Shown here one piece after another: positions 2,382 to 59,928 of a DNA stretch of 64,000 bases. The DNA is from a virus. The notes beneath the pieces were generated by a model. That model was given only the letters and a program-made list of their open reading frames with translations, did no database searches and was not told the DNA's origin. Each line of letters begins with the position of its first letter. Position 1 is the stretch's first letter. The translations under genes and the position numbers were made by a program. The DNA is taken from IMG/VR virus record IMGVR_UViG_3300045988_109352, one strand, 5' to 3'.

Positions 2382-2399
2382 ACCTCAACTTTTACATAG

Positions 2400-2702: not shown

Positions 2703-2719
2703 CTCTTTATAGTTTTAGT

Positions 2720-3304: not shown

Positions 3305-3315
3305 ATTATTTTAGT

Positions 3316-4131: not shown

Positions 4132-4138
4132 CTTATTA

Positions 4139-4285
4139 CTAACTGATTATTATTATTACAGACAAAGCTATTCCGGCTATAAGCCAACTGATAACATCAC
4201 TACTATATTTGAAGTTAGGACGTAGTATGATGGCAAATAAAGCCACAATATCCCACACCAATAGTAGAAGCATGAACTTTCCCAT
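4139..4285 (-). CDS. small membrane protein (48 aa)
   Basis: Hand-translated MGKFMLLLLVWDIVALFAIILRPNFKYSSDVISWLIAGIALSVIIIIS, two hydrophobic helices. Confidence 0.35.
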   Translation of the reverse strand: MGKFMLLLLVWDIVALFAIILRPNFKYSSDVISWLIAGIALSVIIIIS

Positions 4286-4375
4286 TATCTGCCTAATTTA
4301 ATGAGTTCTCCAGACAACAAACAGCCAATAAATCCGATAATTATTATTAATGCCATAGTTTTTAATATTTAGAAG

Positions 4376-4837
4376 TTATACAAATTGTTTTTCTATGTAA
4401 ACACACCCTATTCCCTTGCTCTTGTTAAACTGGCTGTTTTTAAGGTCAATATTAGGCTTTATAAAGTCTTTTATGTTATCCACTAAAGAAATATATTTAG
4501 ATGCGTTCGCCTCTATTGCAAGGGCTTTATACATTTCTTCGCACATAGCCATATACTTTTTAAATTCTCCTTTGTTGAAGCGGACAACTATTTTTCCGTG
4601 TGTTTCAATAAATTTGTTGTGCCCTACATAAAACTTTCTTTCATCATTGCAATGCACCAATTTATCACCTACGTATAGATACGTTCTTTGTCCCATGCTG
4701 TACTTACTATCTACTGATATGCTATTAAAGTAAACCGCTTGTTTCTTTGGAATGCCTACAGACACAATGTTTTCCAGTAGTTCCATGTTTGCTTTTGCCT
4801 TCTCAAAGTCTTCTTCAAAATTTTTATAAGTTTTCAT
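4376..4837 (-). CDS. hypothetical protein
   Basis: 153-aa ORF. Confidence 0.65.
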   Translation of the reverse strand: MKTYKNFEEDFEKAKANMELLENIVSVGIPKKQAVYFNSISVDSKYSMGQRTYLYVGDKLVHCNDERKFYVGHNKFIETHGKIVVRFNKGEFKKYMAMCEEMYKALAIEANASKYISLVDNIKDFIKPNIDLKNSQFNKSKGIGCVYIEKQFV

Positions 4838-4844
4838 ACACTAC

Positions 4845-4879
4845 TTTATTGTTATATTATATATATTATATATATTATA
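4845..4879. repeat. AT-only tandem repeat (ATATTATAT x ~4)
   Basis: Read directly in the intergenic gap upstream of ATG 4837. Confidence 0.7.
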
Positions 4880-4908
4880 TATATTACCAAAACAGTTATA
4901 ACTTTTTG

Positions 4909-5109
4909 TTATAATGGAAGCTTATGCTCTGATAATATATACGGGTGCTTTAAATTAGTAATACCATGATACAATATTTCGCGCTTTGTTTCTGCCTTAT
5001 AAATAAACAGATTTCCGTTTCTCATTGCCTTCATTGTATCATTGATATTCAACCCTTGCAGGCTTATAAACTCTTTTAGTTCGGGCTTAAATTTCGTTAT
5101 TAACTTCAT
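4909..5109 (-). CDS. hypothetical protein
   Basis: 66-aa ORF. Confidence 0.5.
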   Translation of the reverse strand: MKLITKFKPELKEFISLQGLNINDTMKAMRNGNLFIYKAETKREILYHGITNLKHPYILSEHKLPL

Positions 5110-5113
5110 GCTA

Positions 5114-5323
5114 TTACCTAAAAACGTAGTTACACAAATTAGATAACCAACACATTAACTGAATAGCCATCATAAAAATGAACATTCCACACAAAGCGGC
5201 TGTAGCTATTACAATTCGTTGCCATATAATGCGATAATCACGCTTTAATATTTTACCGCTAACAAAGCGTCCGTTATAAAAATCTGTTATACTCATAGTT
5301 CTATTATTATTATTTGAATTCAA
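5114..5323 (-). CDS. small membrane protein
   Basis: 69 aa with one hydrophobic helix (VIATAALCGMFIFMMAIQLMCWL). Confidence 0.55.
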   Translation of the reverse strand: MNSNNNNRTMSITDFYNGRFVSGKILKRDYRIIWQRIVIATAALCGMFIFMMAIQLMCWLSNLCNYVFR

Positions 5324-6197
5324 ATTTAATTCCTTCCGGCAATAGAGAATAGTCTATATTTTTAAGCATGTTATTATATTCTTCTTCTGTTACTTTGTCG
5401 TGATATCTATAATAATTGAAAACTACATTATTATCTTCAACAGAGTAAAGATAATTATCTGATAATAAGCCAGCCCCTAATATAGCTAATTTTACATCTT
5501 TTTCTTTTGTTGCTTTGTTTGTTCTTTTTTCAAAGGTTTTAATCACTTCGTTTTTTCTTTTCTCTATTTTGGCGATTCTTTCAGCTTCTTTACGTTCTTG
5601 TATCGCACTTTCCGTATAATATCCAGATAATATTTTCCCCTCCATTTCTTCGCGTTCTTCATCGCTTAAAACAAATCTATGGCGTTCTTCGCTTTCCTTA
5701 TATGGATTAATCCAAACATCACCCGTTAATTCTTCCAGTACTTGTATAGCTTTCTTGCTTTCTGCTTGCCATCTTTCCACAATACCAAGTGCAAACAATT
5801 GATATTTAAAATATTGTTTGTTGTCACATTTTGACAAAATTTCCATTTCTTCATCAGTTACGCGCAAATATTCCTTTGCTTGCTTTTTATCTTTTTGTAA
5901 AAAGTAATATCCATTTTCAACTGGATATAATGGTGTACCACGCCAATCGCATAGATGAAGGTCTACAAACATTTTCAACTTTGGAGAAGCTTTTAATATT
6001 TCCTCATGGATGCAACCGTGCCCAATATCGTAAAAACGTCCGTTTCCTTTCTTTTGCTGGAGTATGCCCGTTATACTCCATGAACACGTACCGTTCTTAC
6101 ATTCATCATGCAATTTAATGGTTGTTATTACTTTATAGGTGATACCTTTTTCACGGAAAGATTTTACTACTGTATATTTTAATGTATTCGTTTCCAT
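5310..6197 (-). CDS. hypothetical protein
   Basis: 295-aa ORF, Cys/His-rich N-terminal half and charged coiled C-terminal half. Confidence 0.7.
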   Translation of the reverse strand: METNTLKYTVVKSFREKGITYKVITTIKLHDECKNGTCSWSITGILQQKKGNGRFYDIGHGCIHEEILKASPKLKMFVDLHLCDWRGTPLYPVENGYYFLQKDKKQAKEYLRVTDEEMEILSKCDNKQYFKYQLFALGIVERWQAESKKAIQVLEELTGDVWINPYKESEERHRFVLSDEEREEMEGKILSGYYTESAIQERKEAERIAKIEKRKNEVIKTFEKRTNKATKEKDVKLAILGAGLLSDNYLYSVEDNNVVFNYYRYHDKVTEEEYNNMLKNIDYSLLPEGIKFEFK

Positions 6198-6198
6198 A

Positions 6199-6480
6199 TT
6201 ATTGTATTTTAATGTTTAAAATTGTGTTACGGTCTGTTTTTACTCTTTTGTTATTTCCCCAAAAGTTAAAAGCTAATTTATGAAGCATATTGTAAGTTAA
6301 ATAATTAGTTCCTACTGTAATAGGTTTAGCACAACACGAATATGTGTGCCCACTATTGATATATTGCTTTACAACTTCCTTCATGCTTATAAATTCCTTT
6401 TCTGAACAAATAACATTTATAGTTTGACTATATGTATTTGTATAATTATATTTTCTTAAATAGTTTACTTTCGTTTTCAT
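6199..6480 (-). CDS. hypothetical protein
   Basis: 93-aa ORF, 1-nt gap to the next gene. Confidence 0.55.
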   Translation of the reverse strand: MKTKVNYLRKYNYTNTYSQTINVICSEKEFISMKEVVKQYINSGHTYSCCAKPITVGTNYLTYNMLHKLAFNFWGNNKRVKTDRNTILNIKIQ

Positions 6481-6580
6481 ATCATTTTGCCATTTTAGTT
6501 ATACACTGAAAAAATACACTTTATTTTGATATGCCCTACAAATAAGTAGAGCACATCTATTAATCCGTTTTCGTGTCATA

Positions 6581-6985
6581 TTATCCAATTATTTGAATGC
6601 CTTCACTATTTACATAATACTCCATACCACATAAAGAATATATGGGAATATAATAATCGCGTAATATATTACCGTTATTATAGAAGCCTACAAACTGAAA
6701 GCGTTCACCCTTGTAATTATCAAGTATATTCATTTCCCGATAACCGAACGGATTGTTTTTTCGTTCCTTTCCCGTGGGTGTCTTATACAAGTTCATGAGC
6801 CACTTATACCCCTTCGCGCTTTGTTCCTCTGTTACTTCTATTTCGATATCACAACCGGGATAAAAGTTTGCAGCTTCATTATCACCATTATTCGCACGCT
6901 TTTTCAAAAGTAATACTTCGCGTTCTGTTATTACTCCATTTGACAATACGTTCTCTATTATCTGACTTGTTTCTAACTTTTTCAT
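6581..6985 (-). CDS. hypothetical protein
   Basis: 134-aa ORF. Confidence 0.65.
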   Translation of the reverse strand: MKKLETSQIIENVLSNGVITEREVLLLKKRANNGDNEAANFYPGCDIEIEVTEEQSAKGYKWLMNLYKTPTGKERKNNPFGYREMNILDNYKGERFQFVGFYNNGNILRDYYIPIYSLCGMEYYVNSEGIQIIG

Positions 6986-7146
6986 ATCATTTTAATTTTT
7001 AATTATTTACTTTTAAGTTCTACTATTTCGGTTAACTTTTCATTCGTATTTAGGTAGCATCTAATTTCTTCAACAAATTATATTATTTATTTGTTATGCT
7101 TACTATAAATATAGTAATTAAAAAAGTGATTAAAATTATCATAGCT

Positions 7147-7356
7147 TTACTTTATTTCTGATGGATATAAGAAGGTTAAACACTCATACATATTTCCTTT
7201 TCTCATTTCTCCATCATTATTGAAAACCTCCCAAACATCCGGTACATCTAAATTAGGAAAGCGCATTATCTTTCCCTGTTCGGTTGTTATCACTTCCGCT
7301 TGCAGTAATTCTTCTTTGAAAATTTCATCTAATTGCTTATTGATATCTAAAATCAT
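7147..7356 (-). CDS. hypothetical protein
   Basis: 69-aa ORF. Confidence 0.5.
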   Translation of the reverse strand: MILDINKQLDEIFKEELLQAEVITTEQGKIMRFPNLDVPDVWEVFNNDGEMRKGNMYECLTFLYPSEIK

Positions 7357-7376
7357 ATCTTTGTCCTCCCGTGACT

Positions 7377-7592
7377 TTAATATTTAACAGTTCTACCATA
7401 ACTAACTTTTCCGTTCTTATTTACTCTGATAGCGGTTAAAGAATGCACTTCGCCATCTTTCCAGCCAACTATACAAGTGCCTGTTAGTTCCTTAATACAT
7501 TCCTTTGGCGTATAAGCCAACCATATATGTTTCTTTGCTTCTTGCAACGTTAAAAACATTTCGTTGCATCCATCTATAGTATAAGTTCCCAT
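7377..7592 (-). CDS. hypothetical protein
   Basis: 71-aa ORF. Confidence 0.55.
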   Translation of the reverse strand: MGTYTIDGCNEMFLTLQEAKKHIWLAYTPKECIKELTGTCIVGWKDGEVHSLTAIRVNKNGKVSYGRTVKY

Positions 7593-7595
7593 AGT

Positions 7596-7964
7596 TTACT
7601 CCTCCGTTTCGTTTTCTATTTCTATTTCGTCCAATACCCCCGAAATTGCCTGCCCAAGAAGATAACAACGTATTGTAACGTCGCAAGCCTCTGCACCTTT
7701 TTCAAGGTAGGATAAATCACAGCCAAATTCAGTTAGTGCTTCTGTTAACAATTCAAAGTTGTGGCAAAGATTTTCTTCTGCTTGCCACGCTGAAAATGTG
7801 TATGAGCCAGAAGCGTTTCCCGTTACGCTATCATTTACAAACAACGTATCGTTCAATTCTTGCTCCACTTCTTCTCGGTTGCTGCTTGTTACTACGATTT
7901 TATTTTCTTCAATGTAGTTTCTAACGTCTTCTTTCACGTTCTCCAGGTAATCGTAAGTTTTCAT
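7596..7964 (-). CDS. strongly acidic small protein (function unknown)
   Basis: 122 aa, about 30 D/E versus about 8 K/R, ends LDEIEIENETEE. Confidence 0.65.
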   Translation of the reverse strand: MKTYDYLENVKEDVRNYIEENKIVVTSSNREEVEQELNDTLFVNDSVTGNASGSYTFSAWQAEENLCHNFELLTEALTEFGCDLSYLEKGAEACDVTIRCYLLGQAISGVLDEIEIENETEE

Positions 7965-11909: not shown

Positions 11910-12275
11910 ATGGAGTTATATTTAGAACCTATTTACCGTGACCGGAATTGCAAGGGGCAGTTCAACAAGGGTCACAGATTGAGATTTGGAGGGCGACCTT
12001 GTTCCGAGGAAACTAAGAAGAAGCTGTCGGAGATTATGAAAAAGAGGATAGCTGACGGTTCTACCAAGATGCCTCATTTTCAGAAGGCTGTAATAGTCAT
12101 TAAGGACGGTCGGATTGTGGGTCACTACCCTTCCGCTACGGAGATGGCTCGCAGGCTGGGAATTACCAAGTCGATTATTATCCGTGTTTGCTTGGGTATT
12201 CGGAAAAGCTATCGTGGATGCAATCTTTTTTACGAGTGTGATTCAGATAAATGGATGAAACTAATTAAAGAATGA
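11910..12275 (+). CDS. NUMOD-type DNA-binding protein (homing-endonuclease DNA-binding module without a nuclease domain)
   Basis: GHRLRFGGRPCSEETKKKLSE resembles NUMOD3. SATEMARRLGITKSIIIRVCLGIRKSYRGCNLFYE resembles the NUMOD1/IENR1 HTH of GIY-YIG/HNH homing endonucleases. No GIY-YIG or HNH motif. Confidence 0.5.
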   Translation: MELYLEPIYRDRNCKGQFNKGHRLRFGGRPCSEETKKKLSEIMKKRIADGSTKMPHFQKAVIVIKDGRIVGHYPSATEMARRLGITKSIIIRVCLGIRKSYRGCNLFYECDSDKWMKLIKE

Positions 12276-12341
12276 GGGTAACTATATAGCACTTTGCACT
12301 AAAAATTATATAAATAAATAGGAAATTTAAAATATTCTATT

Positions 12342-12349
12342 TATATTTG
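12342..12349 (+). promoter_or_regulatory. -7 promoter box TATATTTG directly in front of tnpB
   Basis: Exact TAnnTTTG ending 4 nt before ATG 12354, implying a leaderless or near-leaderless mRNA. Confidence 0.45.
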
Positions 12350-12353
12350 CGAC

Positions 12354-13568
12354 ATGTATTTAACGGAGCAACATATAATAACAGTTAATGACAAGAGGTA
12401 CAAGGATTTAGACCGGATTTGTTTCTTATCCAAGAACTTGTATAATGCGGCTTTATATATCATAAAGCAGGAGTTTCTTGTTTCCGGGAAATGGATAAGG
12501 TCTACAGAACTTAACAAAAAGATGGTTGCAGAAAACAACGTTGATTTTAGGGCTATGAGTGGTTCTTCTTCCCAGCAAATTTTAATGGCTTTGGATAAGA
12601 ATTTGAAATCCTATTTTTCTGCCATTAAAGCATGGAAAAGGGATAACAAGAAATTTACTGGATGCCCTAAATTCCCGAAATACAAGCATAAAACAAAAGG
12701 AAGAAATATATTTACTTATTCTTATGTACAATTTAAACATAGAGGGGAGTACATTTATTTCCCGAAGAAAGAAGGTCTGCAACCGTTGAAAACAAGATGC
12801 AAGGAAGGAACAGTTAAGCAAATAAGGTTTGTACCGAAAGCAGATTGTTATGTAATAGAACTGGTATATGAATCAGAAGTAAAGGAAAAGCTACCGGATA
12901 ACAATAAGTATATGTCTATTGATTTGGGAGTTAACAACCTTGCTTCTATTGTAACTAATACGAGTAACAAGGCTGTTTTGGTAGACGGAAAGAAATTGAA
13001 GTCCATCAACCAGTATTACAATAAGAAAAAGGCTAAAGTTCAATCACAATTAAAGAAAACAAATGGAAAGGAAAATTCGAGACGGTTAATGAACCTTACA
13101 AGAAAAAGAAACAATAAGGTCAAGGATTATTTGCATAAGGCAAGCAAGGAAATTGTAAGCATGTGTTTGAAAGACAATATAACTACATTGATAGTAGGAC
13201 ATAATGACGGATGGAAACAGGAAGTGGATATGGGTAAAAGAAACAATCAGAACTTTGTTTCAATTCCGTTTGAAACGTTCATATCAATGTTAAGGTACAA
13301 ATCTGAAAGACAAGGACTAAGATTTGTTGAAATAAACGAATCTCACACGTCAAAATGCAGTTCTTTAGATTTAGAAGAAGTAAAACATCATGATAGTTAT
13401 ATTGGAAAGAGAGTAAAAAGAGGTCTTTTCAGAACAAAGAACGGGATTTTACTCAATGCAGATATAAACGGAGCCTACAACATCATGAGAAAAGTAAAGG
13501 GGGATGCAGCAATGCCACCCTATAGAGGGTTTGGGTATAACCCAGTTAAGAAATTTATTAACAAATAG
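12354..13568 (+). CDS. tnpB: TnpB-like RNA-guided nuclease family protein (divergent lineage)
   Basis: 404 aa. RuvC-I SIDLGVNNLASIV; NQNFVSIPF...ESHTSKCSSLD; RuvC-III NADINGAYNIMRK. The canonical RuvC-II xxEDL motif is replaced by IVGHNDGWKQEVD, and the CxxC zinc-finger pairs are absent. Confidence 0.85.
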   Translation: MYLTEQHIITVNDKRYKDLDRICFLSKNLYNAALYIIKQEFLVSGKWIRSTELNKKMVAENNVDFRAMSGSSSQQILMALDKNLKSYFSAIKAWKRDNKKFTGCPKFPKYKHKTKGRNIFTYSYVQFKHRGEYIYFPKKEGLQPLKTRCKEGTVKQIRFVPKADCYVIELVYESEVKEKLPDNNKYMSIDLGVNNLASIVTNTSNKAVLVDGKKLKSINQYYNKKKAKVQSQLKKTNGKENSRRLMNLTRKRNNKVKDYLHKASKEIVSMCLKDNITTLIVGHNDGWKQEVDMGKRNNQNFVSIPFETFISMLRYKSERQGLRFVEINESHTSKCSSLDLEEVKHHDSYIGKRVKRGLFRTKNGILLNADINGAYNIMRKVKGDAAMPPYRGFGYNPVKKFINK

Positions 13569-13597
13569 ATACAAGTGTAAACTTGTATATAATTACC
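13440..13597 (+). ncRNA. predicted omega-RNA (reRNA) scaffold of the solo tnpB; 5' limit uncertain
   Basis: By analogy with characterised TnpB systems the guide RNA spans the tnpB 3' end and right end. Hairpins GCA-GCAA-UGC, ACCCU-AUAG-AGGGU, UGGGU-AUA-ACCCA and the terminal ACAAGU-GUAA-ACUUGU are read here. Confidence 0.45.
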
Positions 13598-13608
13598 AGA
13601 ATGAGATT

Positions 13609-25273: not shown

Positions 25274-25982
25274 ACAAACTAAAATCTAACCTTGCAGGGT
25301 CAGAAGGAAATATTTTTTTTGCAAATTCAGTCACTTTTATGCAAGTCTTTCTTGATTCATCTACTTTAGGAATAATCCCAAATTCGACTGCCGACTGCAA
25401 AGAATGTGTATCACAAGGAACAAGAAGTCGAGAAGGTGATAGAGTTTTCCATAATCCAATATCAACTACACTATCCTTCCTTATCATCCATCTAAGCATC
25501 ATATTTACTCTTTTATTTGCACAATTACTGTTTGGACTGGGTATCATTGTTTCACCATGCAATAAATGGCACAGTCCTTGGCAATAGTATGTGCATTTCT
25601 GAGAATAAGTAACACGTCCAAGAGCGTCTTCAAGATTAGGGTACTTCATATAAATGGAATGAAGTTTATCACAAAGGGAAGCAAAGCAATGCCAAGAAGT
25701 CATACGGTATAAGCTCGTATAATTATCCTTGTATTTATTCCATTCCACGCCATATATATACTGAAAAGGCTTATTCCCCATTATCTCTGTAAGAATATAG
25801 TCTATTTTTGGAATGAATACCGAGCGCCTGCCATAAGCAAGCCAAGCTGCTATGACTGCCGCTACTTCGATGTCTTTTCTATCCTTAAATCTTCGTGGAA
25901 ATTGTATAGGGTCAGACTTGATAAAACTCTCTACCTCATACTTTTCTGCAAGGTCAATGTAATCTCTAAACTTCATATTCAT
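25242..25982 (-). CDS. TIGR02757/DUF2400-like family protein (function unknown)
   Basis: N-terminus FIKSDPIQFPRRFKDRKDIEVAAVIAAWLAYGRR and overall size recall this family; recognition is from memory only. Confidence 0.45.
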   Translation of the reverse strand: MNMKFRDYIDLAEKYEVESFIKSDPIQFPRRFKDRKDIEVAAVIAAWLAYGRRSVFIPKIDYILTEIMGNKPFQYIYGVEWNKYKDNYTSLYRMTSWHCFASLCDKLHSIYMKYPNLEDALGRVTYSQKCTYYCQGLCHLLHGETMIPSPNSNCANKRVNMMLRWMIRKDSVVDIGLWKTLSPSRLLVPCDTHSLQSAVEFGIIPKVDESRKTCIKVTEFAKKIFPSDPARLDFSLYGYGVEKSEK

Positions 25983-25994
25983 ATCAATTTGTTA

Positions 25995-26200
25995 TGTGCA
26001 AAAGTGAACTACCCACGAACTAAAGATTCGTGGGCTTCCGACTTCACAGAGGAATGCCCTTTCAAAAGATTAGGTCTTCTATCCTCTCCATCGGTGTAAT
26101 CGGCAGTCCCTGCCGATATATTATTTAATCCTAATTTTAGGATATTGATAGCAGCATTTACATCTCTATTATGATGTGTACCGCAAGATGGGCAACCCCA
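25995..26200 (-). ncRNA. predicted omega-RNA scaffold of tnpB (3' end of ORF plus RE hairpin); limits approximate
   Basis: The tnpB ORF tail ...[17 protein letters not shown] is encoded by the RE hairpin region, a typical signature of the guide-RNA segment. Confidence 0.45.
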
Positions 26201-27214
26201 TTCTCTTACTTTCAAGTCTTTTATTTCGCTATTACGATAGCCACAAACATTACAAAGCTGAGAGGATGGAAAAAACCTATCAATCTTAACTACATTTCTA
26301 CCATTCCAATTAGCCTTATATGTTAGCATAGTGACGAATGTCCCCCAACTTGCATCAGTAATTGATTTAGCAAGTTTATGGTTTCGTACCATACCTTTTA
26401 CATTAAGGTCTTCAATACAAATGGTATCGTAGTTAGAGATTAGAGAATGAGAACACTTATGCAAGTAGTCCATACGGCAAGCAGAAATCTTCTCGTGAAG
26501 TTTGGCGACTTTGAGCCTTTGGTTTTCGTACTCATTACTGCCTTTCTTTTTTCTTGAGAGGTGTTTCTGTGCTACTGCAAGTTTCTTCTCATATCTCTTT
26601 GTGTATCTATTATTCTTGAATACTTCACCATCAGATGTTATCAGTAGGTCTTTCAAACCTAAATCTACACCAACTGCTTTATTAGCAGGTGCAAGTTCTT
26701 GATACTCCTCTATTGTGAATACTGATACAAAATACTTTCCTGTTGGAGTTTTAGTTAGACTAACTTTGCCCATCTTACCTTTGATTTCTCTATGCAGACG
26801 GATAGTTATACCACTCTTGAATTTAGGTAGCCACAACTTACTATCTTCAATAGTTGCAAATTGGGGTACGGTAAATGTATTCTTACCTTTCTTTGAGTGA
26901 TAGTTAGGGAACTTCGCTCTCTTTTGGAAGAAATTAGTGTATGCAGTTTCAAGATTACGCAAAGCAAATTGAAGTGTTTGAGAGTTTACTTCTTTAAGCC
27001 AAGCGGTTTCTTCTTTTTTCTTTAATTCAGTTAAAGCCTTTGCCTGAGCATAGTAGTTATCACTCTCTCCTTCCTCTTTATATTGCTCTTGCCTTTGATT
27101 AAGGAAATAGTTATAGACAAAGCGAGTACAGCCGAAGTGCTTCGCCAACAATTCCATTTGGGAAGCATTTGGATATATCCTAAATCTGTATGTTCTATTT
27201 ATCGTCTTAATCAT
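26009..27214 (-). CDS. tnpB: TnpB RNA-guided endonuclease (canonical motifs)
   Basis: Start at [16 protein letters not shown]. Ruv[11 protein letters not shown], Ruv[14 protein letters not shown], zinc finger CNVCGY...[18 protein letters not shown] (RuvC-III). The 44-aa N-terminal ORF extension is rejected. Confidence 0.9.
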
Positions 27215-27292
27215 AGTGCAAATATACATATAAGTATTTACAAAAACAAGAAATGTTTTGTAAAAGTGAAATATTTTCGTTAATTTTGTAGT

Positions 27293-27697
27293 ATGAGGAG
27301 TGATTATGAGCATAGTAACCGACACAAATATTACTTGAAGTGTCATTTGATATTCTGTATTAAGTACAGAAAGAAGTTGCTCGTAGGCAAATTCAATGAT
27401 ACTATCAAATGTATTTTAAAGGGTATCGCAGAAAAGTCTGATTTTGATATTGAAATAATGGAGTCAGACAAAGACCACATCCATTTTCTCATCAACTATC
27501 CACCGAACATATCAGTAACATCTATTGTTAGAAAACTCAAGCAAGAGAGTACGATATTCGCTTGGAAACTATTTGAGAGTAAGTTGAGAAAAGAGTTTTG
27601 GGTTGAACGCACATTATGGAGTGATGGATATTTCTGTTGCTCAATAGGAGAAGCAAGTCCAGAAACAATTAGGAAATATATTGAACAACAAGGTTAG
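27293..27697 (+). CDS. tnpA: IS200/IS605 TnpA Y1 (HUH) transposase
   Basis: 134 aa. [14 protein letters not shown]-like core, HUH motif DHIHFLI, catalytic Tyr context [11 protein letters not shown]. Confidence 0.9.
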
Positions 27698-27725
27698 TGC
27701 CTTACATCCCATAGGCTAAAGACCT

Positions 27726-27932
27726 ATGGGTTTTCGGCACTTAAATATAAATGGATATAGTCAATGGGTAAGTAACTGTTTTAAAGATTATTATGTAATA
27801 CAATACGAACGTTTAATACCCGTATTATGGCGAGGTATTCAGCAAGTAGATAATGAGGTAGCTACCCTCAAAAAGAAGATAGCTACCTTAGAAAAAGAAC
27901 TTAGTTCTGTAAAGAGGCAACTAAGCCTTTAA
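27726..27932 (+). pseudogene. orphan C-terminal remnant of an S74-type tail-fiber chaperone domain
   Basis: YERLIPVLWRGIQQVDNEVATLKKKIATLEKEL follows the pattern of the last helix and coiled coil of intramolecular chaperone domains. No upstream coding partner. The first codons lie in the IS left-end hairpin. Converges on and overlaps the tail-fiber stop by 32 nt. Confidence 0.4.
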
Positions 27933-30900
27933 GCCTATTAATCTCTGATTTAGCATGTTCCAATTCCTTTCTCATTCGTTCTTGCTCTGATTCAACAAGA
28001 CGGATAGAAAGGATATTGGCTTGCACAGAACCAATGATTGTTGCGATAAGGTCGGGAGATAAATAATTCAAGCTACCATATCCATATTCATCCTTTTCGT
28101 GACAGAAATTTGTGATACCAGCTTTCACCGCATTTTGATATACAAGTCCGGTATGACGTTTATTGTCTATCCTATCTTGGTATAAATCCAATGCTTTTTT
28201 GTTATAATTATAGTCATAAACTCTGCCAAGTTTTAGTAGTCTTTCTCGGTAATCTATAAGCCCATCGTAATTCTCTTTTAATCTAAAGTCAGAAGTAGCT
28301 TTAGCGGTGATTGCAGCCGTAGCAGTAATACTTCCAGTAAAAGCCCATGTGATACCATCATATTGCATAACATACGATTTATTTGTAGCACTTGTCGGAT
28401 TAGCAGTACCTCTCCACCAATACCAAGACCCGTTTGAATGACAGCCAAGTCCCATTGTATAATTACCTCCAACGATTTCAATACTATCATCGCTCGTATT
28501 TGAGAACCTTGCTCCTACATTAAAAGAATTAGCACCACTTCCAGTTATTCCCGTACTATTTATCCAACCATGCAGGGTGCAATCTCCAAATTCCATATTT
28601 GCCCAAGATGAACCGCTTCCTGCCCGCCAATGCCATTTTTTAGGAACAGACCTACCGCCATAACTTGCACCTCTATAATTAACATGAAAATCAGTGCCTC
28701 CAGCTATAATAATCTCATTTCCACCGCTTGAAAGTTCCAAATAAGAACCATTTTGGGTTATAGTAGATGGATTCATATAAAGACCAGAATCAGCATAGAC
28801 CCAAGATTGAATATACGCATCTATAAATCTATTGTTAAATGAACCTATTCTGTAATTATTATTGCTTAACGGAAAGATATTACCAGAATACATTCCACCA
28901 TTAAAAGTTGCAGCCCCTCCAAAAGTACTTGTAGAACTTATGTCGAGATTATAACTATAAACACACTTCCATCTTAAATCAGTAGTTCCCGAAGTTATTG
29001 AATTACTAAGATGGGGCTTTATATTTTGATAATATGTATCTTCAATAAAAGATACATATGTAATTCCTCCTTGTGTTAGTGTTGTACTAAGACTACTATT
29101 AATCTCAGAGTTATTAATAACTTCTGCATTATTTCCATTTGCCTTAGTTTTATATTTTATACGGTATGGCAAAGTGATAGTTGATAATCCTCCTGCAATA
29201 GTTGAACGAATAACCCCTCTAAAATAATAACTATCCATTCTATTATCCCGATATGGGATTTCAATACAATAATACCAAATGTCATTATACTTACATTTTT
29301 TTAATACATATTGATTAGATAAAAAAGAGCTTATTGATTTTATATTCCAAAGAGTAGTATTATAAATAGTCGAAATCTTCACATCAACCCAAAAGCATTG
29401 ATTACCTCCATTTGTATATCCAGATATAGTACCATCTATAGTATTAAGACCGCCTAAATTAGTTGTAGCAGGAATAGGTAACAACAGCAATACTTCATAG
29501 CTATAACTTCCTACACCACCCCAAACTCTATGTTGAAAATGTTCATCTCCACATAGAAGCGAAAACTCTCCATTTAATCCAATTATATTTTTATTTACTA
29601 CTAATTCGGTTGATATAGTAGATGTATTGTTGTCCCATTTTTGCCACGGATTTGAATAAAGTCCAGCATAAGCATAAGAAATAGATTGTCCAGAACCATA
29701 AAAACCAAATTTTACTGGGGTAGAAGTCTTATTTATATTAGCACCAAATCCTCTCTCCCATCCTCCGGTTATAGAGCTACTAATATCTATATAAAATTCT
29801 CCCCATTGAGAAGATATACGTGCAGTTGTTTGCCCAGTACCTACGACTAAGTTTCCCGTCATAGTATCACCAGCCTTTTTGACGTAGGTAGAATTTAGGA
29901 TGCTACTGTAGTTCTCTGAATCAATGAGTTGTTTCCACGAACCAAAACTATATATATTATAGTCTTTATTGCGGTAATAAATATGTCCTTCTTTACCAGA
30001 AGAAAAATAAAGTTGAGGTTGCCAATGACTTGAAAGAGTACTACATATTTCCATGATATTACCATAAGTCGTAGGCATCGTACTCCCTAAGCTATAAATA
30101 TCAAAGAAGTTGACCCTACTACTTCCTGCTCTATTCGTATTATTTATATTATCTGCACTCGTATTTGCGACTTTGACACTTCCAGAAGCATAATTAGTGC
30201 TATTATTTGAATGTAGGATAGTCCAAGTATTATAGGTTAAGAAGTTATTCCCTATAATAAAACTATATTTCCCAGCAGCATCATTCCAAACTTCTGTGCT
30301 TCCCAATGGATTTAAGAATATACGTTGTACAGTATTTTGATACCCAATTTCGGCAATTCTTGTATCTGATGCGGTATTATTCCAAATGATACCTCTTCTA
30401 TAATTAGAAGTATCTGTTGCCATTCTAATAGAAAATTCAGCCGGATTTTTCAACTGTAATCTGCCAGTCATTTCATCGCCTGCCTTCTTCACATATACGC
30501 TGGATAAAGCGTTTATGTCTTTTTGAAGGGCATATGGGCTTCCATTTACACTTCGTACACTAATACTATCCCCTTTGCTTGCAATTGAACTGTTTACTTC
30601 TGAATTTACAACTGTACCAGTATTGGAAGTATAGTAATGCACTTTACTGAAATTAATGTTTAATTCTGAACCCATAAAGTACATACTAACAGCTTGTGTA
30701 TTTGTATGTCTTAAAGCCCACCATTTTTCACCATTATATGTACAAGTTACTAAAGACCAATCACTTCCTATTCCTGCTGTATCAAAATTGCCATAAAACT
30801 CATAATCAGAAGTAGACCATCTTGAAAAAAACAAGTCAATTTCTGCATATTGATAACGGGCAAGACCATTACTTTCGGTATATAATTTACCATTGATTCT

Positions 30901-44647: not shown

Positions 44648-45075
44648 GCGTGATTGATGCAAGGCGAATGCCGATATACCAATATGTTTATTCTCTCTTC
44701 ATAGATAAGGTTACAAAGTACATCTATCCGATGGAAATGCCTACCAAGTTGGAGGAGGAGATAAATGCTGGCGGTTTCATGGTTATCCGTCTGGGAGAAA
44801 TTAAGGATAAGAGCCAGTTCAACTTGAATGCTCTTGCGAGCGTTCGCGTGACAGTTGAGATGTATATTCCTCCCAAGACAAGAGGTCGGCTTGATACCAC
44901 CTTGCTGGAAAAGTATGAAACAAGTATATCCGACATTGTAAATGCAGAAGTTGAGAAAGCCGGAGAAAAATACGACATCTCAACTGACGGTATATTGTCA
45001 ACTGATGATATATATAATGAGAGCGACAATCTGTTCTTCATGTATATTAAATCATTTATAATCAACATAAAATAA
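44644..45075 (+). CDS. tail completion/terminator protein (tentative)
   Basis: 143 aa immediately upstream of the tube gene. Position only. Confidence 0.4.
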   Translation: MSVIDARRMPIYQYVYSLFIDKVTKYIYPMEMPTKLEEEINAGGFMVIRLGEIKDKSQFNLNALASVRVTVEMYIPPKTRGRLDTTLLEKYETSISDIVNAEVEKAGEKYDISTDGILSTDDIYNESDNLFFMYIKSFIINIK

Positions 45076-49400: not shown

Positions 49401-51792
49401 GCAACAGATTAAGTTGGTAGATGATATTCAAAAGAAGTTCTTGCAGCTTGTGAAAGACACTGGCAATATAACCTATGCTACCGAAAAAGTGAAGGAAGCT
49501 TACCAAGACTTATTCGACAATGCGTTTAAGGGTGTCAGTGTTGATATTAACGACTTGATTACCTTTGATAAAGGTAGTGCTCCAAAGTTCTATAATAAGA
49601 TAGCTGAAACCCTCAAATCGCCAGAAGCTAAACAGTTGGTTGCCGGGAAGAAGGCACAGAGCGAGATTGAATATTCCATCTCTATTAATTCTGCAAGTGT
49701 TGCTTTGGCAAAACGTAAGATTGAGGGAATGTTCCAAGGCTATGAATTAGAATTGGATATTGAAGGCGCTGGGCAGTTCGGTTCACTGTTTGCTGGTTTG
49801 TTTGAGTATGACCCCGTTTCACTTGAACAGTTGGAAGCTGATGTCAACGCTACATTGAATAATCTGAAAAGTAATGTTTCATCTTTCCAAGAAGAACAAA
49901 AGAGATTACAAGACTTAATCAATCAGAATCCTAACGACACAAGGGTTGACAGTTGGAAAAGTTCTCTTGACACACTTGTTAAGAATGAGAGTGACGCTTC
50001 AAAGGCTATTGAAGATATTCAGAAAAGGTTAAGCGATACTATCAAGAAAGCTGCATTGGATGATTTTAAGAACTTCCAATCTATAGCAGACAAGTACGCT
50101 GAAATGGAGGATAAGATAGCGGAGGTCGAAAGAAAACGTTTAGAAGACCAAGCTTCTATCTCCAATAGAGTTACTGATGCAACTTCTGATTTGGCGAAGC
50201 TGGAATTGCAGTTGTCTGTGACCGAAAGCCCCAATGTAAGAGCAGAGATAGAAAGTGAGATTGAAGAAATACAAAACTTTATAAACGAGAAAGCCCCAAA
50301 GCTCTCTCTTGCTGTTGATACTGGTGCGGAACAAGAAAAGACTAAGATAGCTTTTGAGGAATGGAAGAATACTTCCAATGCTTGGGAGAAGTCGTTTCAA
50401 GACTTAAGTATTATAGGTACTATCTCTTTAAATCAAATGATTGACGAGATAACTAAGTTTGCAGAGGCTAATAAAGCTAATATGCCAATAGACCAATACA
50501 AAGAACTATTAGCACGGATTAAGGCTTTAAAGACCGAAGTAAATTCTCGTAACCCATTTGCTGCTCTTGCCAACCAAGTTAAAAACTTAAAAGATAAGCT
50601 GAAAGAAAGCGAAAATCCTTTTAAAGACTTATTAGCTAATATAGAAGAACTTGGAATGATGGTAAGTTCTGTAGGGAATATATTTGAGCAGATGGGATTT
50701 TCGGAAGGTGTCACTGATACTATCTCAACAGTAGGAGAAACTATACAAGGAGTTGCCCAAGCTGCTGATGGAGTTAAAGATATAATGTCGGGCAATTTTA
50801 TTAGCGGTGGTATAAAGGCTGTTGGTGGTATCTGGAAAGGAGTATCAGCCATATTCAATGCCGGGAACAAGAAAATTACAAGAGAGGTTGAAAAGAGTGA
50901 GAGAAGAGTTAAGCAATTAGAGAACGCTTATAAGAATCTTGAACGTGCTGTTGATAAGTCGATGGGTAAAGCTGAAATTTCAGCGCAGAAGGCAGCTATT
51001 GCAAATCAGAAGGCACAGCTTGCAGAAGTTCAACGTCAGCTTCAACTTGAAAAGAGCCGGAAGAAGAAAAACCGCGACCAAGACAAAATCATAGAATTAG
51101 AGGGTCAAGTTACCGACTTACAGAATGCCATTGATGATGCTACTACTAATATAGTAAACACTTTGCTCGGTACAGATGTAAAATCTGCCGCAGAAAGCTT
51201 TGCCGATTCTTGGATTTCAGCTTGGAAAGAAGGTGCTGATACAATGGAAAATTTAGAGGAGAGCTTCGATGATTTAATAACAAATATGATTGTCAAGTCG
51301 CTTGCTTCTACGATTGTCGGAGAACGGTTAAAGAGCATGTTTGCTATGGTTAAGAGATTTACCGAAGAAAACTCTGCTGGCGGTGTAGGTATCACTACCG
51401 AAGAAGCCAAACAGATAGCTGACTTAGGTAAAGAGTTAATTCCTTTGATAAACGAGGACTTAAAGAACTTGATGGGTCAGCTTGGTATAGAGTTCGGTAG
51501 TGGAGTGAAAGACGCAGCCCTTTCTTCCTTACAGAAAGGAATCTCTTCGGTGACCGAAGAAACTGCTGGGGCTATTGAAGCTTATTTAAATATGGTTAGT
51601 GGGCAAGTGTTCCAACAAACTACTATTCTGCAAGGTATATGGGATATGACTAATGTCAATGCAGGAACGATGTCGCAGATGTTACTTCAAATGAGAAGTA
51701 GTTATCAGATACTTCAAGCCATTCAAGTTTGGACGGTAAATATTTCTACTGCCGCAGGAAATGGTGTAAATGTTAGGATATTACCCGATTAA
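46456..51792 (+). CDS. tape measure protein
   Basis: 1778 aa, long coiled-coil composition with central hydrophobic segments, after the chaperone pair. Confidence 0.85.
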   Translation: MADNKDVVISASMSDKDLLSSIDETLKKTEKRLEDFTNKLEGKLASVEGFADQLGKNIGKGLVDGFNQQIRPLETKISELEAKLKSLGATNIAQGNTAATQATTTNVSVDVNSMNQALQVANNLREVFSKIQGNTTRIKNNMEQLATVKTDVQEARINVHVAQREKLLQREILLRQQTANLAARIAREEEKSRISQGGQSYEKAMAMGNKSIQERIEKLKALQIVQRNLSTDDANYAAKLATVNKEMASLKKANADAISSGVQLQKVNSGLMESFKNLGKRVLFYAGLGAITGFVKSLMDVRGQYELLERSIGAVLNDFEKGSQIFREQQTLALKSPFTVIDLASTTKMLAAYNFEAEELVDVSKRIADISAALGVPMERLTYNLGQIRAQTVLTARDARDFANAGLSITTELAKMYTEQEERIVSVGDVMDRMSNKMVSFTDVMKVLNRYTDEGGMFYDFQAKQAETLAGQLSNLTDAYDFMLNEIGKENQGMLTGSISLVRSLFENWRSVANILTVVATALGVYKTAQIAVATVQLAANMNLRKYSEYLVIARKALRDKAAATKLAEASTQNLNKTLLAVAKNPYAVIIAGLAALGVAIYQAYTNATKFRKELESITAGGLINAQQMTSDFDALVKKLNESEKGSRNFSDALKEINNTYGSYLPNMLTEINYASELAKNYNKVVDAIYNKAKSQALEKSYQVITEKYSEQQQDAIANIIEKMTEGGISKVNAQEITRNFVASLDKGLSKGETYMARFYSISKKYLGGSTAEMEKLNPVVQSLFGSSGSIDKLGKAITEQKKAIQEVREASDIISNRPTYSSVIEGQAIDNINEKYKKLEQNQKNEKLRLIELQAAYKKLGNTYMYDQITEQLQKYNVELKDWQKNVNSIVQKAGGGAGAGFAIKQDEDIWSYIDRLKKEYRSLTAQQEEISKGLTASPEEKEYVANRLKVARQIASALNLDLSTQKEMNKAKKEEMDLLKQQIKLVDDIQKKFLQLVKDTGNITYATEKVKEAYQDLFDNAFKGVSVDINDLITFDKGSAPKFYNKIAETLKSPEAKQLVAGKKAQSEIEYSISINSASVALAKRKIEGMFQGYELELDIEGAGQFGSLFAGLFEYDPVSLEQLEADVNATLNNLKSNVSSFQEEQKRLQDLINQNPNDTRVDSWKSSLDTLVKNESDASKAIEDIQKRLSDTIKKAALDDFKNFQSIADKYAEMEDKIAEVERKRLEDQASISNRVTDATSDLAKLELQLSVTESPNVRAEIESEIEEIQNFINEKAPKLSLAVDTGAEQEKTKIAFEEWKNTSNAWEKSFQDLSIIGTISLNQMIDEITKFAEANKANMPIDQYKELLARIKALKTEVNSRNPFAALANQVKNLKDKLKESENPFKDLLANIEELGMMVSSVGNIFEQMGFSEGVTDTISTVGETIQGVAQAADGVKDIMSGNFISGGIKAVGGIWKGVSAIFNAGNKKITREVEKSERRVKQLENAYKNLERAVDKSMGKAEISAQKAAIANQKAQLAEVQRQLQLEKSRKKKNRDQDKIIELEGQVTDLQNAIDDATTNIVNTLLGTDVKSAAESFADSWISAWKEGADTMENLEESFDDLITNMIVKSLASTIVGERLKSMFAMVKRFTEENSAGGVGITTEEAKQIADLGKELIPLINEDLKNLMGQLGIEFGSGVKDAALSSLQKGISSVTEETAGAIEAYLNMVSGQVFQQTTILQGIWDMTNVNAGTMSQMLLQMRSSYQILQAIQVWTVNISTAAGNGVNVRILPD

Positions 51793-57108: not shown

Positions 57109-57657
57109 TTAGAATTTTATTGTACAAAATATATCATCGGCAATTTCTTTGAACCTATTAGCTAAAGACTTTAATATCTTTTCTTTGATTATATCTGAAT
57201 CTTCAAAAGGTTCTTTAAAGATTCTCTCTGTTTCTTCTAAATCTGCCAATATCTGGCGCAAAGCTTTATTTATTTCCTCTGCTCCGTCCTCTGACAGACT
57301 TTTGTGTGGGCAAGTCATGATTTTACCGACAAGAGATGATAGGTCTGCATCTACCTTACATTCAAATTGAGTAGCCTTTTGAGTAGTACCTTCTTTACCT
57401 TCAAGTTCGATACGCATCATAATGGCGTAGTTTGCAAGGTCAGTCAGCGTATCAGACACCGATTCATAATTAGGCTTCTCATTACTATTAAGCAATGACT
57501 TCAATCGGTTAAACTTATCTTCCATGCGAACAATGCCAGCTATATTGCCATGTTCTTTGATTGACTTGCCGAATGAATCGCCATAATCTTTGTTCTTGTT
57601 TTCGTAGAGCGTTGCCATTTCAGCAACTATCTCTTTAAATCTTTCTATCTTATTCAT
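57109..57657 (-). CDS. DUF1599-like (nucleotide-modification-associated domain) protein
   Basis: YENKNKDYGDSF...GIVRMEDKFNRLKSLL...ESVSDTLTDLANYAIMM matches my recollection of the DUF1599 signature. Confidence 0.5.
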   Translation of the reverse strand: MNKIERFKEIVAEMATLYENKNKDYGDSFGKSIKEHGNIAGIVRMEDKFNRLKSLLNSNEKPNYESVSDTLTDLANYAIMMRIELEGKEGTTQKATQFECKVDADLSSLVGKIMTCPHKSLSEDGAEEINKALRQILADLEETERIFKEPFEDSDIIKEKILKSLANRFKEIADDIFCTIKF

Positions 57658-58039
57658 CTTTAAACTTATTTCGTTTAACTTGTTCTAAGCAATCATAAAT
57701 ATATCCGAGTAAATAGCAAAAGGGTTCTTGGTCTTGGGAATTAGCATACGAGCCTATTTCATCAAATAACGATATAGCTATATGTCCTGCATCGTGAGCC
57801 AAATCTTTGTTTGGTGCATTTGGCGTCATTAATGCGAGTATTCCAAACATCTCTGTATCTTTGTATTGAACTCTTGGTGTAACTCTTATACTAAAAGGAC
57901 TATCGCTATCATCCAATTCCCAATCTATTTCGTCACCATTGTATCTACAAAAAGCTTCTTTTAGTTCCTTCTCCGTCCATTTCTTAATTACCCATAATTT
58001 TCTTGGATAAGGAGTTAGATTAAATTCATGTATTTTCAT
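57650..58039 (-). CDS. hypothetical protein
   Basis: 129-aa ORF. Confidence 0.6.
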   Translation of the reverse strand: MKIHEFNLTPYPRKLWVIKKWTEKELKEAFCRYNGDEIDWELDDSDSPFSIRVTPRVQYKDTEMFGILALMTPNAPNKDLAHDAGHIAISLFDEIGSYANSQDQEPFCYLLGYIYDCLEQVKRNKFKDE

Positions 58040-58040
58040 G

Positions 58041-58211
58041 CTACCACCAAAATATTCCTCCCCAAATCGCGTAGAATATGATTAGGGAGAATAACCATAA
58101 AACGCTCATAAAGCCAGCTATAAAAGGATTTCCATAATCGCTAATTTTGTATAGCCAGTATATAAATGCCATGCCTATTACGACCGCAACAATGTTACTC
58201 CACGTTATCAT
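58041..58211 (-). CDS. small membrane protein (56 aa)
   Basis: Hand-translated MITWSNIVAVVIGMAFIYWLYKISDYGNPFIAGFMSVLWLFSLIIFYAIWGGIFWW, two TM helices. Below the ORF-track cutoff. Confidence 0.45.
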   Translation of the reverse strand: MITWSNIVAVVIGMAFIYWLYKISDYGNPFIAGFMSVLWLFSLIIFYAIWGGIFWW

Positions 58212-58222
58212 TCTTCATTTCG

Positions 58223-58402
58223 GGCGTTTATATCCAAGCTTACACTTGGACAACTTGACGTTTCATCGAGCCACTACTTCTTAGGGAGCTTGCGCTCCGG
58301 TCGTCCATAGTTGGGTTCTCACCGTCCAATCCCCGATGCGCCATCGGTTGGGTTAATACTATTTTAAATCACTCTGCGTAGCTTGGTTTTCGCTACATTG
58401 GC
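58223..58402 (-). ncRNA. structured repeat R1: tnpB-less omega-RNA-like / IS605 right-end-like module
   Basis: 180 nt, 176/180 identical to 59182-59361. Minus-strand hairpins with GNRA loops (58285-58298 GCAA; 58233-58250 GUAA). The 3' hairpin is homologous to 13571-13586. Confidence 0.55.
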
Positions 58403-58417
58403 TTTTTTTATAAAAAG

Positions 58418-59167
58418 CTAAGTGTCACTCCTCATTTCGTTTAAGGCTTCTCCTTCATCAACCTCTCTTTTAGGAATGGCAATTGATTGTTTAAATTCAC
58501 CACCGTTATCCCTTATCAGAATCTCAATCTTGTTCATTGCCTCACGTTCGATGTTGCAGATTTGTTCCTTCAAATCTTTTACCTTTTCTTCATCAAGCGT
58601 TGTTTCAAGAGAAAGATAGCGGATAGTTTCGATATACTTCTGATAAAATTCGTTGCGAGAAATATCGGAAGGTGCTGGCATGAGCATGGTATTACTTTTT
58701 GCCAAGTATGAGAAGTACATACACATTACATTGGTGACTTGCAATGTATCTCCTCCAACGGCAAAGGCTGGCTCGGAAAGCGTATAAATCCATCGCTCTG
58801 TATGCTGCAATACCTTAACAATCTCTTCCGGCATTTCGTCAGCATGTTCCATCAGTTGAGAGAAGCTGAAACCTTGTACATTCCCATTCTTGTCCTTAAC
58901 TTCTCCAAATTCTTTGTTTGCTTCGATGCACTCACAGAATGTTCTAAGCCACAGATAAGGATTAGAATAACCGCCACTCACTACATTGGTAAATACGTTT
59001 CTATGGAAGTTTGTAGACACAACTGAGTAATCGTCGGTAACTGCAATAGAAATTCCTCTATCGTCCAGTCTGCAATACATGTGTCCTTTGGTCTTTGGCA
59101 CGAATACATAGGAAGTACCTATGAGTTTTACAAGCTGTGCCTTGCTCATTTTACTAATATCCATCAT
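58418..59167 (-). CDS. hypothetical protein flanked by the R1/R2 repeats
   Basis: 249-aa ORF. Confidence 0.7.
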   Translation of the reverse strand: MMDISKMSKAQLVKLIGTSYVFVPKTKGHMYCRLDDRGISIAVTDDYSVVSTNFHRNVFTNVVSGGYSNPYLWLRTFCECIEANKEFGEVKDKNGNVQGFSFSQLMEHADEMPEEIVKVLQHTERWIYTLSEPAFAVGGDTLQVTNVMCMYFSYLAKSNTMLMPAPSDISRNEFYQKYIETIRYLSLETTLDEEKVKDLKEQICNIEREAMNKIEILIRDNGGEFKQSIAIPKREVDEGEALNEMRSDT

Positions 59168-59181
59168 ATCACTTTTGGTTA

Positions 59182-59361
59182 GGCGTTTATATCCAAGCTT
59201 ACACTTGAATAACTTGACGTTTCATCGAGCCACTACTTCTTAGGGAGCTTGCGCTCCGGTCGTCCATAGTTGGGTTCTCACCGTCCAATCCCCGATACGC
59301 CATCGGTTGGGTTAATACTATTTTAAATCTCTCTGCGTAGCTTGGTTTTCGCTACATTGGC
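59182..59361 (-). ncRNA. structured repeat R2: tnpB-less omega-RNA-like / IS605 right-end-like module
   Basis: Second copy. Three of its four differences from R1 preserve pairing on the minus strand only. Confidence 0.55.
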
Positions 59362-59406
59362 ATTAGGTTATATACTAAGTATCACTTTGTATATAAGTGC
59401 CTTTGG

Positions 59407-59928
59407 TTATTTATTTTTCTTTTTTTCGTCCTCGTAAACTAAATACAATTTAGCTTTGACAGCCTCGTCAGATTTCAGAGAGTGGGCATTTCTTATTCTC
59501 TTACTTTTAAGGAATGCAAGAGCCTCTTCCCGGTTGCTGATGAATGGGTATATCCACTCCGGCAATTTCTCCTCTTCAACTTCGACGTCTTCCATGATAG
59601 CTTCTTGACGTTCTTCCAGCAACTCTTCCATTGCCATTTTATTGGCTTCGTCCAAGTCCATGCTTTCAATGTCAGCTTCCACAAAGTCGGGAACTGGATA
59701 GCATTCAAGAATTTCTGTAAATGTCGCCAAGCAGAAATCTTTAACGACTTTGACAGCTTCGTCCTTCTCTTTATTGTACCGACAAATTGCATAGTTTTCT
59801 GTTCCGTCAATCCGTCTTACAAGGCAAACTCCTTTGTTGAATTCGGAAACCTTGTCCCAAGTTTTTTTAGGAAGTGACGGAATTTGAAGCGTTGCGAGGC
59901 AATCGTCTAAGTAGTTCTTTTTCTCCAT
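59407..59928 (-). CDS. hypothetical protein
   Basis: Start moved to MEKKNYLDD because the first ATG (59955) lies inside the -7 box. Confidence 0.6.
   Translation of the reverse strand: MEKKNYLDDCLATLQIPSLPKKTWDKVSEFNKGVCLVRRIDGTENYAICRYNKEKDEAVKVVKDFCLATFTEILECYPVPDFVEADIESMDLDEANKMAMEELLEERQEAIMEDVEVEEEKLPEWIYPFISNREEALAFLKSKRIRNAHSLKSDEAVKAKLYLVYEDEKKKNK

Follow-up and report, generated by a model that had tools for sequence, protein, structure and literature searches.

In prokaryotes, TnpB with its guide RNA is regarded as bound up with the scarless transposition of IS200/IS605 and IS607 elements, and links to DDE transposases have been called rare (PMC13565253). Elements of those two groups have neither terminal inverted repeats (TIRs) nor target-site duplications (TSDs) (PMC13565253, PMC3119063), and the omega RNAs of TnpB are encoded over the 3' region of tnpB (PMC13565253, PMC10711439). 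The only DDE families that a 2026 review names as partners of TnpB in prokaryotes are ISL2, IS630 and IS1031, in what it describes as rare cases (PMC13565253). The IS1595 family, which is related to eukaryotic Merlin, produces 8-bp TSDs, as Merlin does (PMC10045372); our full-text literature searches found no paper linking IS1595 to TnpB. Here we describe a repeat, R, present as two copies (R1 and R2) in IMG/VR virus record IMGVR_UViG_3300045988_109352, a stretch of 64,000 nucleotides (the window) that is ~97% identical across most of its length to Bacteroides phage C3_41T2LP (OR296439.1, host B. uniformis; hereafter C3). The identity of R1 and R2 as tnpB-less MITEs (miniature transposable elements with inverted repeats) with an omega-RNA scaffold and IS1595-type ends is well supported, and the fuller reading, in which R also derives from a TnpB element of ~1.33 kb, seems to us probable. 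The pairing of a DDE-type element with a TnpB guide scaffold has rarely been reported in bacteria or their viruses, and here two TnpB lineages and an RNA-only derivative are found on IS1595-type ends in widespread human-gut Bacteroides phages.

Several described systems share part of this architecture. The palindrome-associated transposable elements (PATEs) of, for example, Haloquadratum (PMC3119063) are, like R, short, non-coding, multi-copy derivatives of a TnpB element by internal deletion that retain the ends of the element and some of the C-terminal region of tnpB; they have subterminal palindromes, no TIRs or TSDs and a Y1 HUH transposase, whereas the ends of R are of IS1595 type, with 13-nt TIRs and 8-bp TSDs. 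The omega RNAs or right-end element RNAs (reRNAs) of IS200/IS605 and IS607 TnpBs are likewise structured RNAs of ~130 nt that lie over the tnpB 3' end, terminate at the right end and take their guide from flanking DNA, and the parent TnpB of R passes the NCBIfam IS200_TnpB cut-off. Unlike them, R matches no Rfam family, its scaffold ends in a DDE-type TIR and its guide would start with the TSD. Fanzor nucleases in DDE transposons with TIRs and TSDs (PMC10711439, PMC13565253) also pair a TnpB-type nuclease, as transposon cargo, with a guide scaffold that ends at the transposon boundary beside the TSD. Fanzors, however, are found in eukaryotes and giant viruses, with the 5' TSD reportedly part of the transposon-associated motif (TAM) and the 3' TSD part of the scaffold, whereas the 8-bp TSD of R is variable and a conserved AA lies 5' of it. 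As in the DDE-linked prokaryotic TnpBs, the parent of R has its TnpB within TIRs and is associated with a DDE transposase, but IS1595 is not among the listed partners, and the elements described here are mostly non-autonomous (tnpB-only or RNA-only) and reside in phage genomes. With IS1595 insertion sequences and MITEs, R shares an identical outer 13-25 nt of the TIR, the 8-bp TSD and the habit of carrying passenger genes; it differs in having no transposase and in carrying as cargo the guide scaffold of an RNA-guided nuclease.

A repeat search of the window returned 58223-58405 and 59182-59364 as a direct repeat of 183 nt with 97% identity. Direct counting gave four substitutions across 58223-58402 and 59182-59361, in agreement with an initial annotation of this DNA, and five across the 183 nt (R1 plus-strand sites 58403, 58371, 58338, 58251 and 58249). 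That annotation had described copies of 180 nt; the repeat itself stands, but the elements are longer, with R2 spanning 59182-59401 and R1 58223-58431, both on the minus strand, and a shared 12-mer, AGTGAYACTTAG, that had been listed as a separate feature lies within their left end. In general R comprises a left end of ~27 nt, a spacer of ~60 nt and a module of 137 nt.

R2 is an intact non-autonomous element of 220 bp, delimited by comparison of filled and empty sites with C3 and by a scan for TIRs and TSDs. Read on the minus strand, it consists of a 13-nt left TIR, GGCACTTATATAC (59389-59401), which falls within a 25-nt identity to the end of an IS1595-transposase element in phage contig L077, a spacer of ~70 nt, a 137-nt omega-RNA scaffold (59182-59318; 168.9 bits and E=1.3e-32 against our covariance model, and identical to a region of tnpB genes) and the right TIR GGATATAAACGCC (59182-59194; reverse complement GGCGTTTATATCC). 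The TSD TAACCAAA flanks it on the same strand: the left copy (59402-59409) holds the stop codon of an upstream 182-aa open reading frame (ORF), and the right copy (59174-59181), which corresponds to the empty allele at 69405-69414 of C3, would form nucleotides 1-8 of the putative guide. In C3 the two genes that flank this position are just 11 nt apart, with a single TAACCCAAA site.

R1 is the same element with a left-end deletion, as an alignment of six copies indicates: 13 nt are missing (GG|CACTTATATACAA|AGTGA...), which took out most of the left TIR, and R1 probably cannot transpose. Its 137-nt scaffold (58223-58359) scores 171.5 bits (E=3.8e-33), and its TSD, CGAAATGA, lies at 58215-58222 (right copy) and at 58432-58439 (left copy), all on the minus strand, the latter inside the 3' end of a 249-aa coding sequence (CDS; 58418-59167, minus strand) that occupies the interval between R1 and R2. 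The last four codons and the stop of this CDS (RSDT*) come from the left end of R1. Intergenic "repeats" of this kind in Bacteroides phages are transposon insertions, and can rewrite gene ends, as R1 has done for the 249-aa protein. The CDS has no match in Pfam, NCBIfam or PHROGs and was for that reason ruled out as a transposase. Empty alleles of the R1 site, CTTAAA|CGAAATGAAGAATGATAACG, were found in four related loci, and the 20-nt flank of R1 is matched at 20/20 positions by empty alleles circulating in relatives.

C3 itself carries four copies of R, one at the R1 site and three elsewhere, and two of the latter three sites are empty in the window (25980-25987 and 45059-45062); the first of these, on the minus strand, is the target TTGATATG, preceded by AA, of the C3 copy at 29211-29429. 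Copies of R are thus polymorphic between near-identical phages, and R1 and R2 are insertions rather than gene leaders or duplicates made locally. Nor did they arise by tandem duplication of a gene cassette in place, as the copies stand at unrelated sites, each with its own TSD.

A scan of IMG/VR with a 23-nt core of R yielded 99 loci and 141 copies, 119 of them unique. Sequence conservation ends exactly at the right-end ...GCC, and perfect 8-bp TSDs surround R at about ten distinct sites, which cannot arise by chance. R is 220 bp long and non-coding, has TIRs and TSDs at its boundaries, numbers 141 copies over 48 contigs and has a 1.33-kb parent, as befits a MITE. A single type B tnpB (the parental gene, described below) occurs together with one to five R copies in 19 of these contigs, R alone in 23 and tnpB alone in six. 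With filled and empty alleles co-circulating and a ratio of nuclease gene to guide-only copies of 1:2-5, these phages offer a natural test system for an RNA-guided nuclease combined with a TSD-making transposase, for guide-only parasitism of TnpB, and for asking whether TnpB drives homing or exclusion between phages.

The parentage of R is indicated by its 3' 137 nt, which are identical to the 3' coding end and right end of a gene for a 406-aa TnpB (type B). The module corresponds to the last ~120 nt of this tnpB plus the right end in contig L004 and at least 24 other related phage contigs, which supports the proposal of the initial annotation that R1 and R2 are tnpB-less modules of a right end and omega-RNA scaffold; its description of them as MITE-like derivatives of a TnpB-carrying element likewise agrees with the TIRs, the TSDs and the 1.33-kb parent. 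Many contigs have coding sequence upstream of the core (...LKLSDRKWTCPKCG..DRDLLAARNI...), which represents the zinc-finger and RuvC-III region of a TnpB. In L004 the 406-aa TnpB (5881-7101) ends inside R sequence, and the element opens with the same GGCACTTATATAC. With 446 bits, this protein clears the NCBIfam IS200_TnpB cut-off of 425; it has three TnpB Pfam domains and retains its D/E/D motifs intact. Since the module coincides with the tnpB 3' end, it represents the region where TnpB omega RNAs are encoded; it lies over that end and stops at the right end of the transposon. Complete tnpB elements of 1321-1331 bp with the same TIRs and 8-bp TSDs were found in the window (12277-13597) and in contig L080 (9433-10763). 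We propose that the ~220-bp MITE arose by internal deletion of such a TnpB-carrying element of ~1.33 kb, in which case the left TIR, the 137-nt segment encoding the TnpB C-terminus and omega RNA, and the right TIR would have been retained. The spacer shows only 9-13-nt collinear matches to internal tnpB sequence, which are suggestive of a tnpB origin but not proof of it.

The tnpB at 12354-13568 of the window, which the initial annotation had taken to represent the lineage of R, is not that parent: its product is only 25% identical to type B, and the terminal hairpin and inverted repeat are all that the two have in common. The last 29 nt of R do match 13569-13597 at 22 of 29 positions, as had been noted (BLAST E=0.02-0.03), but a further shared stretch near the left end of that tnpB, ATTTAAAATA, is no better than chance, being one 10-mer match among many.

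The ends of R, and those of the element around this tnpB (type A), have TIRs and 8-bp TSDs matching IS1595-family DDE transposons and not IS200/IS605. A scan of a genome collection (596 Gb) with the 15-mer GGCACTTATATACAA was of limited use, as the query was too short and nearly all of the 120 loci were chance matches; after filtering for inverted TIR pairs and a TSD, L218 and L175 alone were informative. Perfect 8-bp TSDs were also present at two tnpB elements, and at L218 and L175 as well. The L218 element (4028-7954), from a metagenome-assembled genome of Bacteroides ovatus, is bounded by inverted repeats of ~54 nt that start with GGCACTTATATACAAC and by the TSD TTCGATTT, and encodes a 300-aa IS1595-family transposase (Pfam 1.1e-40, NCBIfam 2.6e-52). 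A 306-aa IS1595 transposase with 69% identity to that of L218 is encoded on the related phage contig L077, and the element end adjoining its gene, GGCACTTATATACAAAGTGACACTT, equals the left end of R at 25/25 positions. L223 has an IS1595 transposase gene followed immediately by a tnpB with 68% identity to type B, an arrangement that could be either a nested insertion or a composite autonomous element; there (1516-3744) the left repeat of the tnpB element, GGTAACTATATAC, provides the stop codon of the transposase. R thus has TIRs matching those of transposase-encoding elements together with an 8-bp TSD, as an IS1595 MITE should, and our conclusion is that R, like the tnpB-only elements, is a non-autonomous element of IS1595 type. 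From these sequence comparisons we infer that R would be mobilised in trans by an IS1595-family DDE transposase; Bacteroides hosts and some related phages have genes for such an enzyme.

Four hairpins had been predicted in each copy (in R1, on the minus strand, at 58285-58298, 58233-58250, 58333-58347 and 58378-58396), and all four recur in the minus-strand minimum free energy and centroid folds. Single-sequence fold z-scores (-1.9 and -2.6; plus strand -1.35) were unremarkable and could not decide the strand, which covariation did. A covariance model of R found strong matches in the window only at R1 and R2. Among 32 close variants, 99.2% of pair cells are paired, four pairs show double-sided changes and none of 500 shuffles attains the covariation score. 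In ten divergent homologues, found through protein relatives, 16 of 38 pairs have double-sided changes, and the covariation score of 0.343 exceeds those of shuffles (0.161) and of slid controls (no more than 0.065), on an alignment fitted to the model. An independent analysis with MAFFT and RNAalifold recovered four helices with nine compensatory pairs; helices 2, 6 and 8 have multiple compensatory pairs. Exchanges of G-U to A-U or G-C are frequent and suit the gene (minus) strand only. These comparisons show that the predicted 137-nt RNA fold is conserved, with compensatory changes, and the earlier argument for selection on a minus-strand fold is supported by the covariation and the many G-U exchanges. 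At the gathering threshold Rfam 15 had no match in the window, and at E<=10 only chance snoRNA matches were returned for 58150-59450; no tRNA or tmRNA was found.

The position of R in the genome is also biased. A same-strand ORF starts within 40 nt of the right end, 9-18 nt downstream, at 32 of 45 distinct flanks (31% for random positions); because R sits in the sense orientation shortly before gene starts, read-through probably provides for its transcription. The dinucleotide AA directly precedes the left TSD copy in about 18 of 20 left-end flanks (window, C3 and L004-L102), as it does the TSD in four of six further homologue loci (including L224, L226, L229 and L231); with the highest AA frequency near start codons at 0.42, the bias has P~1e-5. 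No mirrored TT was found on the right side at those flanks, and such a one-sided bias is odd for a DDE transposase and TAM-like. We hypothesise that an empty allele, in which AA stands before the 8 bp that become duplicated and the flank downstream of them, has the TAM-plus-target geometry for a right-end guide. A read-through transcript of R would then be an omega RNA, with as its guide the 16-20 nt past the right end (the TSD and downstream flank). Together with the cognate 406-aa TnpB, this RNA would direct cutting of the empty allele in co-infecting phages, and recombinational repair would copy R in, a form of non-restorative homing. That R copies are guide-only selfish elements of this kind, spread by an IS1595 transposase while TnpB supplied in trans cuts the AA-marked empty allele in co-infecting phages, is a tentative proposal that we hold to be unlikely on balance. 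If it were true, cutting would copy R in or exclude a rival phage, and one tnpB with several R copies would be a dispersed multi-guide system in a phage; it would be a prokaryotic parallel to Fanzor in DDE transposons, and a possible step to guide arrays.

For the window itself the matter looks different. The initial annotation had suggested that R1 and R2 could supply extra guides to the phage TnpB, but the cognate TnpB is absent from the 64-kb window, although relatives often combine one tnpB with several R copies: tblastn found no type B tnpB in the window or in the complete C3 genome. R is therefore an orphan here, and most likely both copies merely ride along as passengers. We also considered whether the two TnpBs of the window could use R, and rejected this, as their right ends reach just 15 and 8.4 bits against the covariance model of R (the former, at 13509-13597, is the third-best match in the window, with E=0.18). 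On sequence grounds, use of R as a guide in trans appears plausible in relatives and unlikely in the window.

The strongest alternative is that R is an inert MITE, a transposition-competent deletion derivative with no RNA function in any genome, whose omega segment is kept because the copies are young or because the transposase needs subterminal sequence. We regard this as possible but unlikely. Yet several observations weigh against a guide function, and some speak directly for an inert element. C3 is a complete genome without cognate TnpB that nonetheless has four copies, and with the two of the window it indicates that R persists without TnpB; the TnpBs present in the window, 25% and 39% identical to type B and with low right-end scores, are unlikely to use R instead. 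Copies of R are more than 95% identical to one another and so may be recent, R1 has already lost its left TIR, and a solo right-end module persists without a left end. The structure-preserving polymorphisms are common to R and tnpB copies, so that selection may act only in the tnpB context; the outer helices differ between the model-fitted and de novo folds; and no Bacteroides-type promoter motif was seen by eye in R. The AA motif could reflect a transposase or site-context preference rather than a TAM, most full-length tnpB homologues have no clean TSD (none was found around the more distant homologues L223-L233), and an omega-RNA role for R would be argued from its position and modelled structure. 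On the other side, all copies retain the entire 137-nt scaffold, with the boundary exactly at ATTAACCC, whereas a transposase would need only the TIR of ~13-25 nt. High-frequency polymorphisms are nearly all structure-preserving on the sense strand, the copies show the biases in orientation and AA motif given above, and the commonest configuration is a single tnpB accompanied by several R copies.

It is improbable that R is primarily a recombination module, that is, portable homology that shuffles or deletes cassettes like the promoter plus stem-loop (PeSL) repeats that flank mobile gene cassettes in T4-type phages. In L006, L047, L077 and others, the 249-aa gene and R are joined straight to sequence corresponding to window position ~57085, and these relatives therefore are without the three genes at 57109-58211. 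Among R copies, one left flank is paired with several different right flanks. These direct junctions and mixed flanks point to recombination between R copies, and in the window the direct repeats flank the 249-aa CDS, all as such modules would have it. Recombinant flanks of this kind are, however, a consequence of any dispersed repeat, and R, unlike PeSL-type repeats, has transposon ends and TSDs; the TIRs, the TSDs, the RNA fold and the identity to tnpB would be left unexplained.

Very improbable, too, is a role of R as a leader, terminator or promoter acting in cis on flanking phage genes, which the initial annotation had offered as its alternative. The distances to the next ATG were as reported (11 nt to 58211 for R1 and 14 nt to 59167 for R2), and stable hairpins and sense-oriented copies ending 9-18 nt before start codons would suit such a role. 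The presence/absence polymorphism contradicts it: the same genes lack R in near-identical phages, as the 11-nt gap in C3 and the R1 empty alleles illustrate. Unrelated genes, too, have this sequence upstream of them, and it recurs within tnpB; a U-run follows none of the hairpins, and the TSDs and TIRs indicate insertion rather than native regulatory sequence.

Although the window has a Y1 transposase and an IS605-type tnpB, and the R hairpin lies 10 nt from the right end as in IS608-type right ends, we give almost no credence to R being an IS200/IS605 PATE moved by Y1 TnpA (27293-27697): such PATEs have no TIRs or TSD and insert 3' of a conserved 4-5-nt target (PMC13565253, PMC3119063), whereas R has TIRs, 8-bp TSDs and IS1595-type ends and therefore is not a PATE, the bases abutting its left end on the 5' side vary, that end has no hairpin like the right-end one, and the hairpins of the IS605 unit are unrelated to those of R.

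The type A element (12277-13597, plus strand, 1321 bp) carries tnpB 12354-13568 between the TIRs GGTAACTATATAG and GGTAATTATATAC and is flanked by a perfect 8-bp TSD, AGAATGAG, at 12269-12276 and 13598-13605; its site is empty in C3 (41133-41147). The type A TnpB has neither the CxxC pairs of a typical zinc finger nor the RuvC-II glutamate in its usual place (...IVGHNDGWKQ... / ...NESHTSK...), and may resemble TnpB clades with a relocated catalytic residue. C3 has a tnpB at 49924-51102, 44% identical to type A, where the window has two small ORFs.

The label "solo TnpB", given earlier to 12354-13568, was wrong, as the window also contains a canonical IS605-type unit (26004-27745, minus strand, boundaries approximate) in which a Y1 tnpA (27293-27697, plus strand) diverges from a second tnpB (26009-27196, minus strand, with 39% identity to type B). 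Its left and right ends have matching hairpins, CCCATAGG-TCTTTAG-CCTATGGG and CCCACGAA-TCTTTAG-TTCGTGGG, and this unit is not the mobiliser of R. At its position C3 has a different segment of 1.27 kb. In contig L036 (3268-5182) a type B tnpB element is inserted within the coding region of an IS605-type tnpB, and the intervening part has been lost.

Other minor features accompany R. A TIR-like stretch, GGCATTTATATAC, lies at 58158-58170 (minus strand) within a 56-aa ORF just 3' of R1; it is kept as coding sequence in eight loci and is possibly due to chance. A solo omega/right-end module of 135 nt, without a left end, occurs in C3 (L002; 11100-11234) and in many IMG/VR loci. It begins exactly at ATTAACCC, between capsid-region genes and often 571 nt from another copy, and the corresponding site in the window (45059-45062) is empty. 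The window finally encodes a serine recombinase of 271 aa (3316-4131, minus strand) with an N-terminal resolvase domain (Pfam 6.1e-24). Like the Y1 TnpA, it was ruled out as a mobiliser of R, as neither chemistry gives 8-bp TSDs; C3 has the recombinase as well, under the annotation of an integrase.

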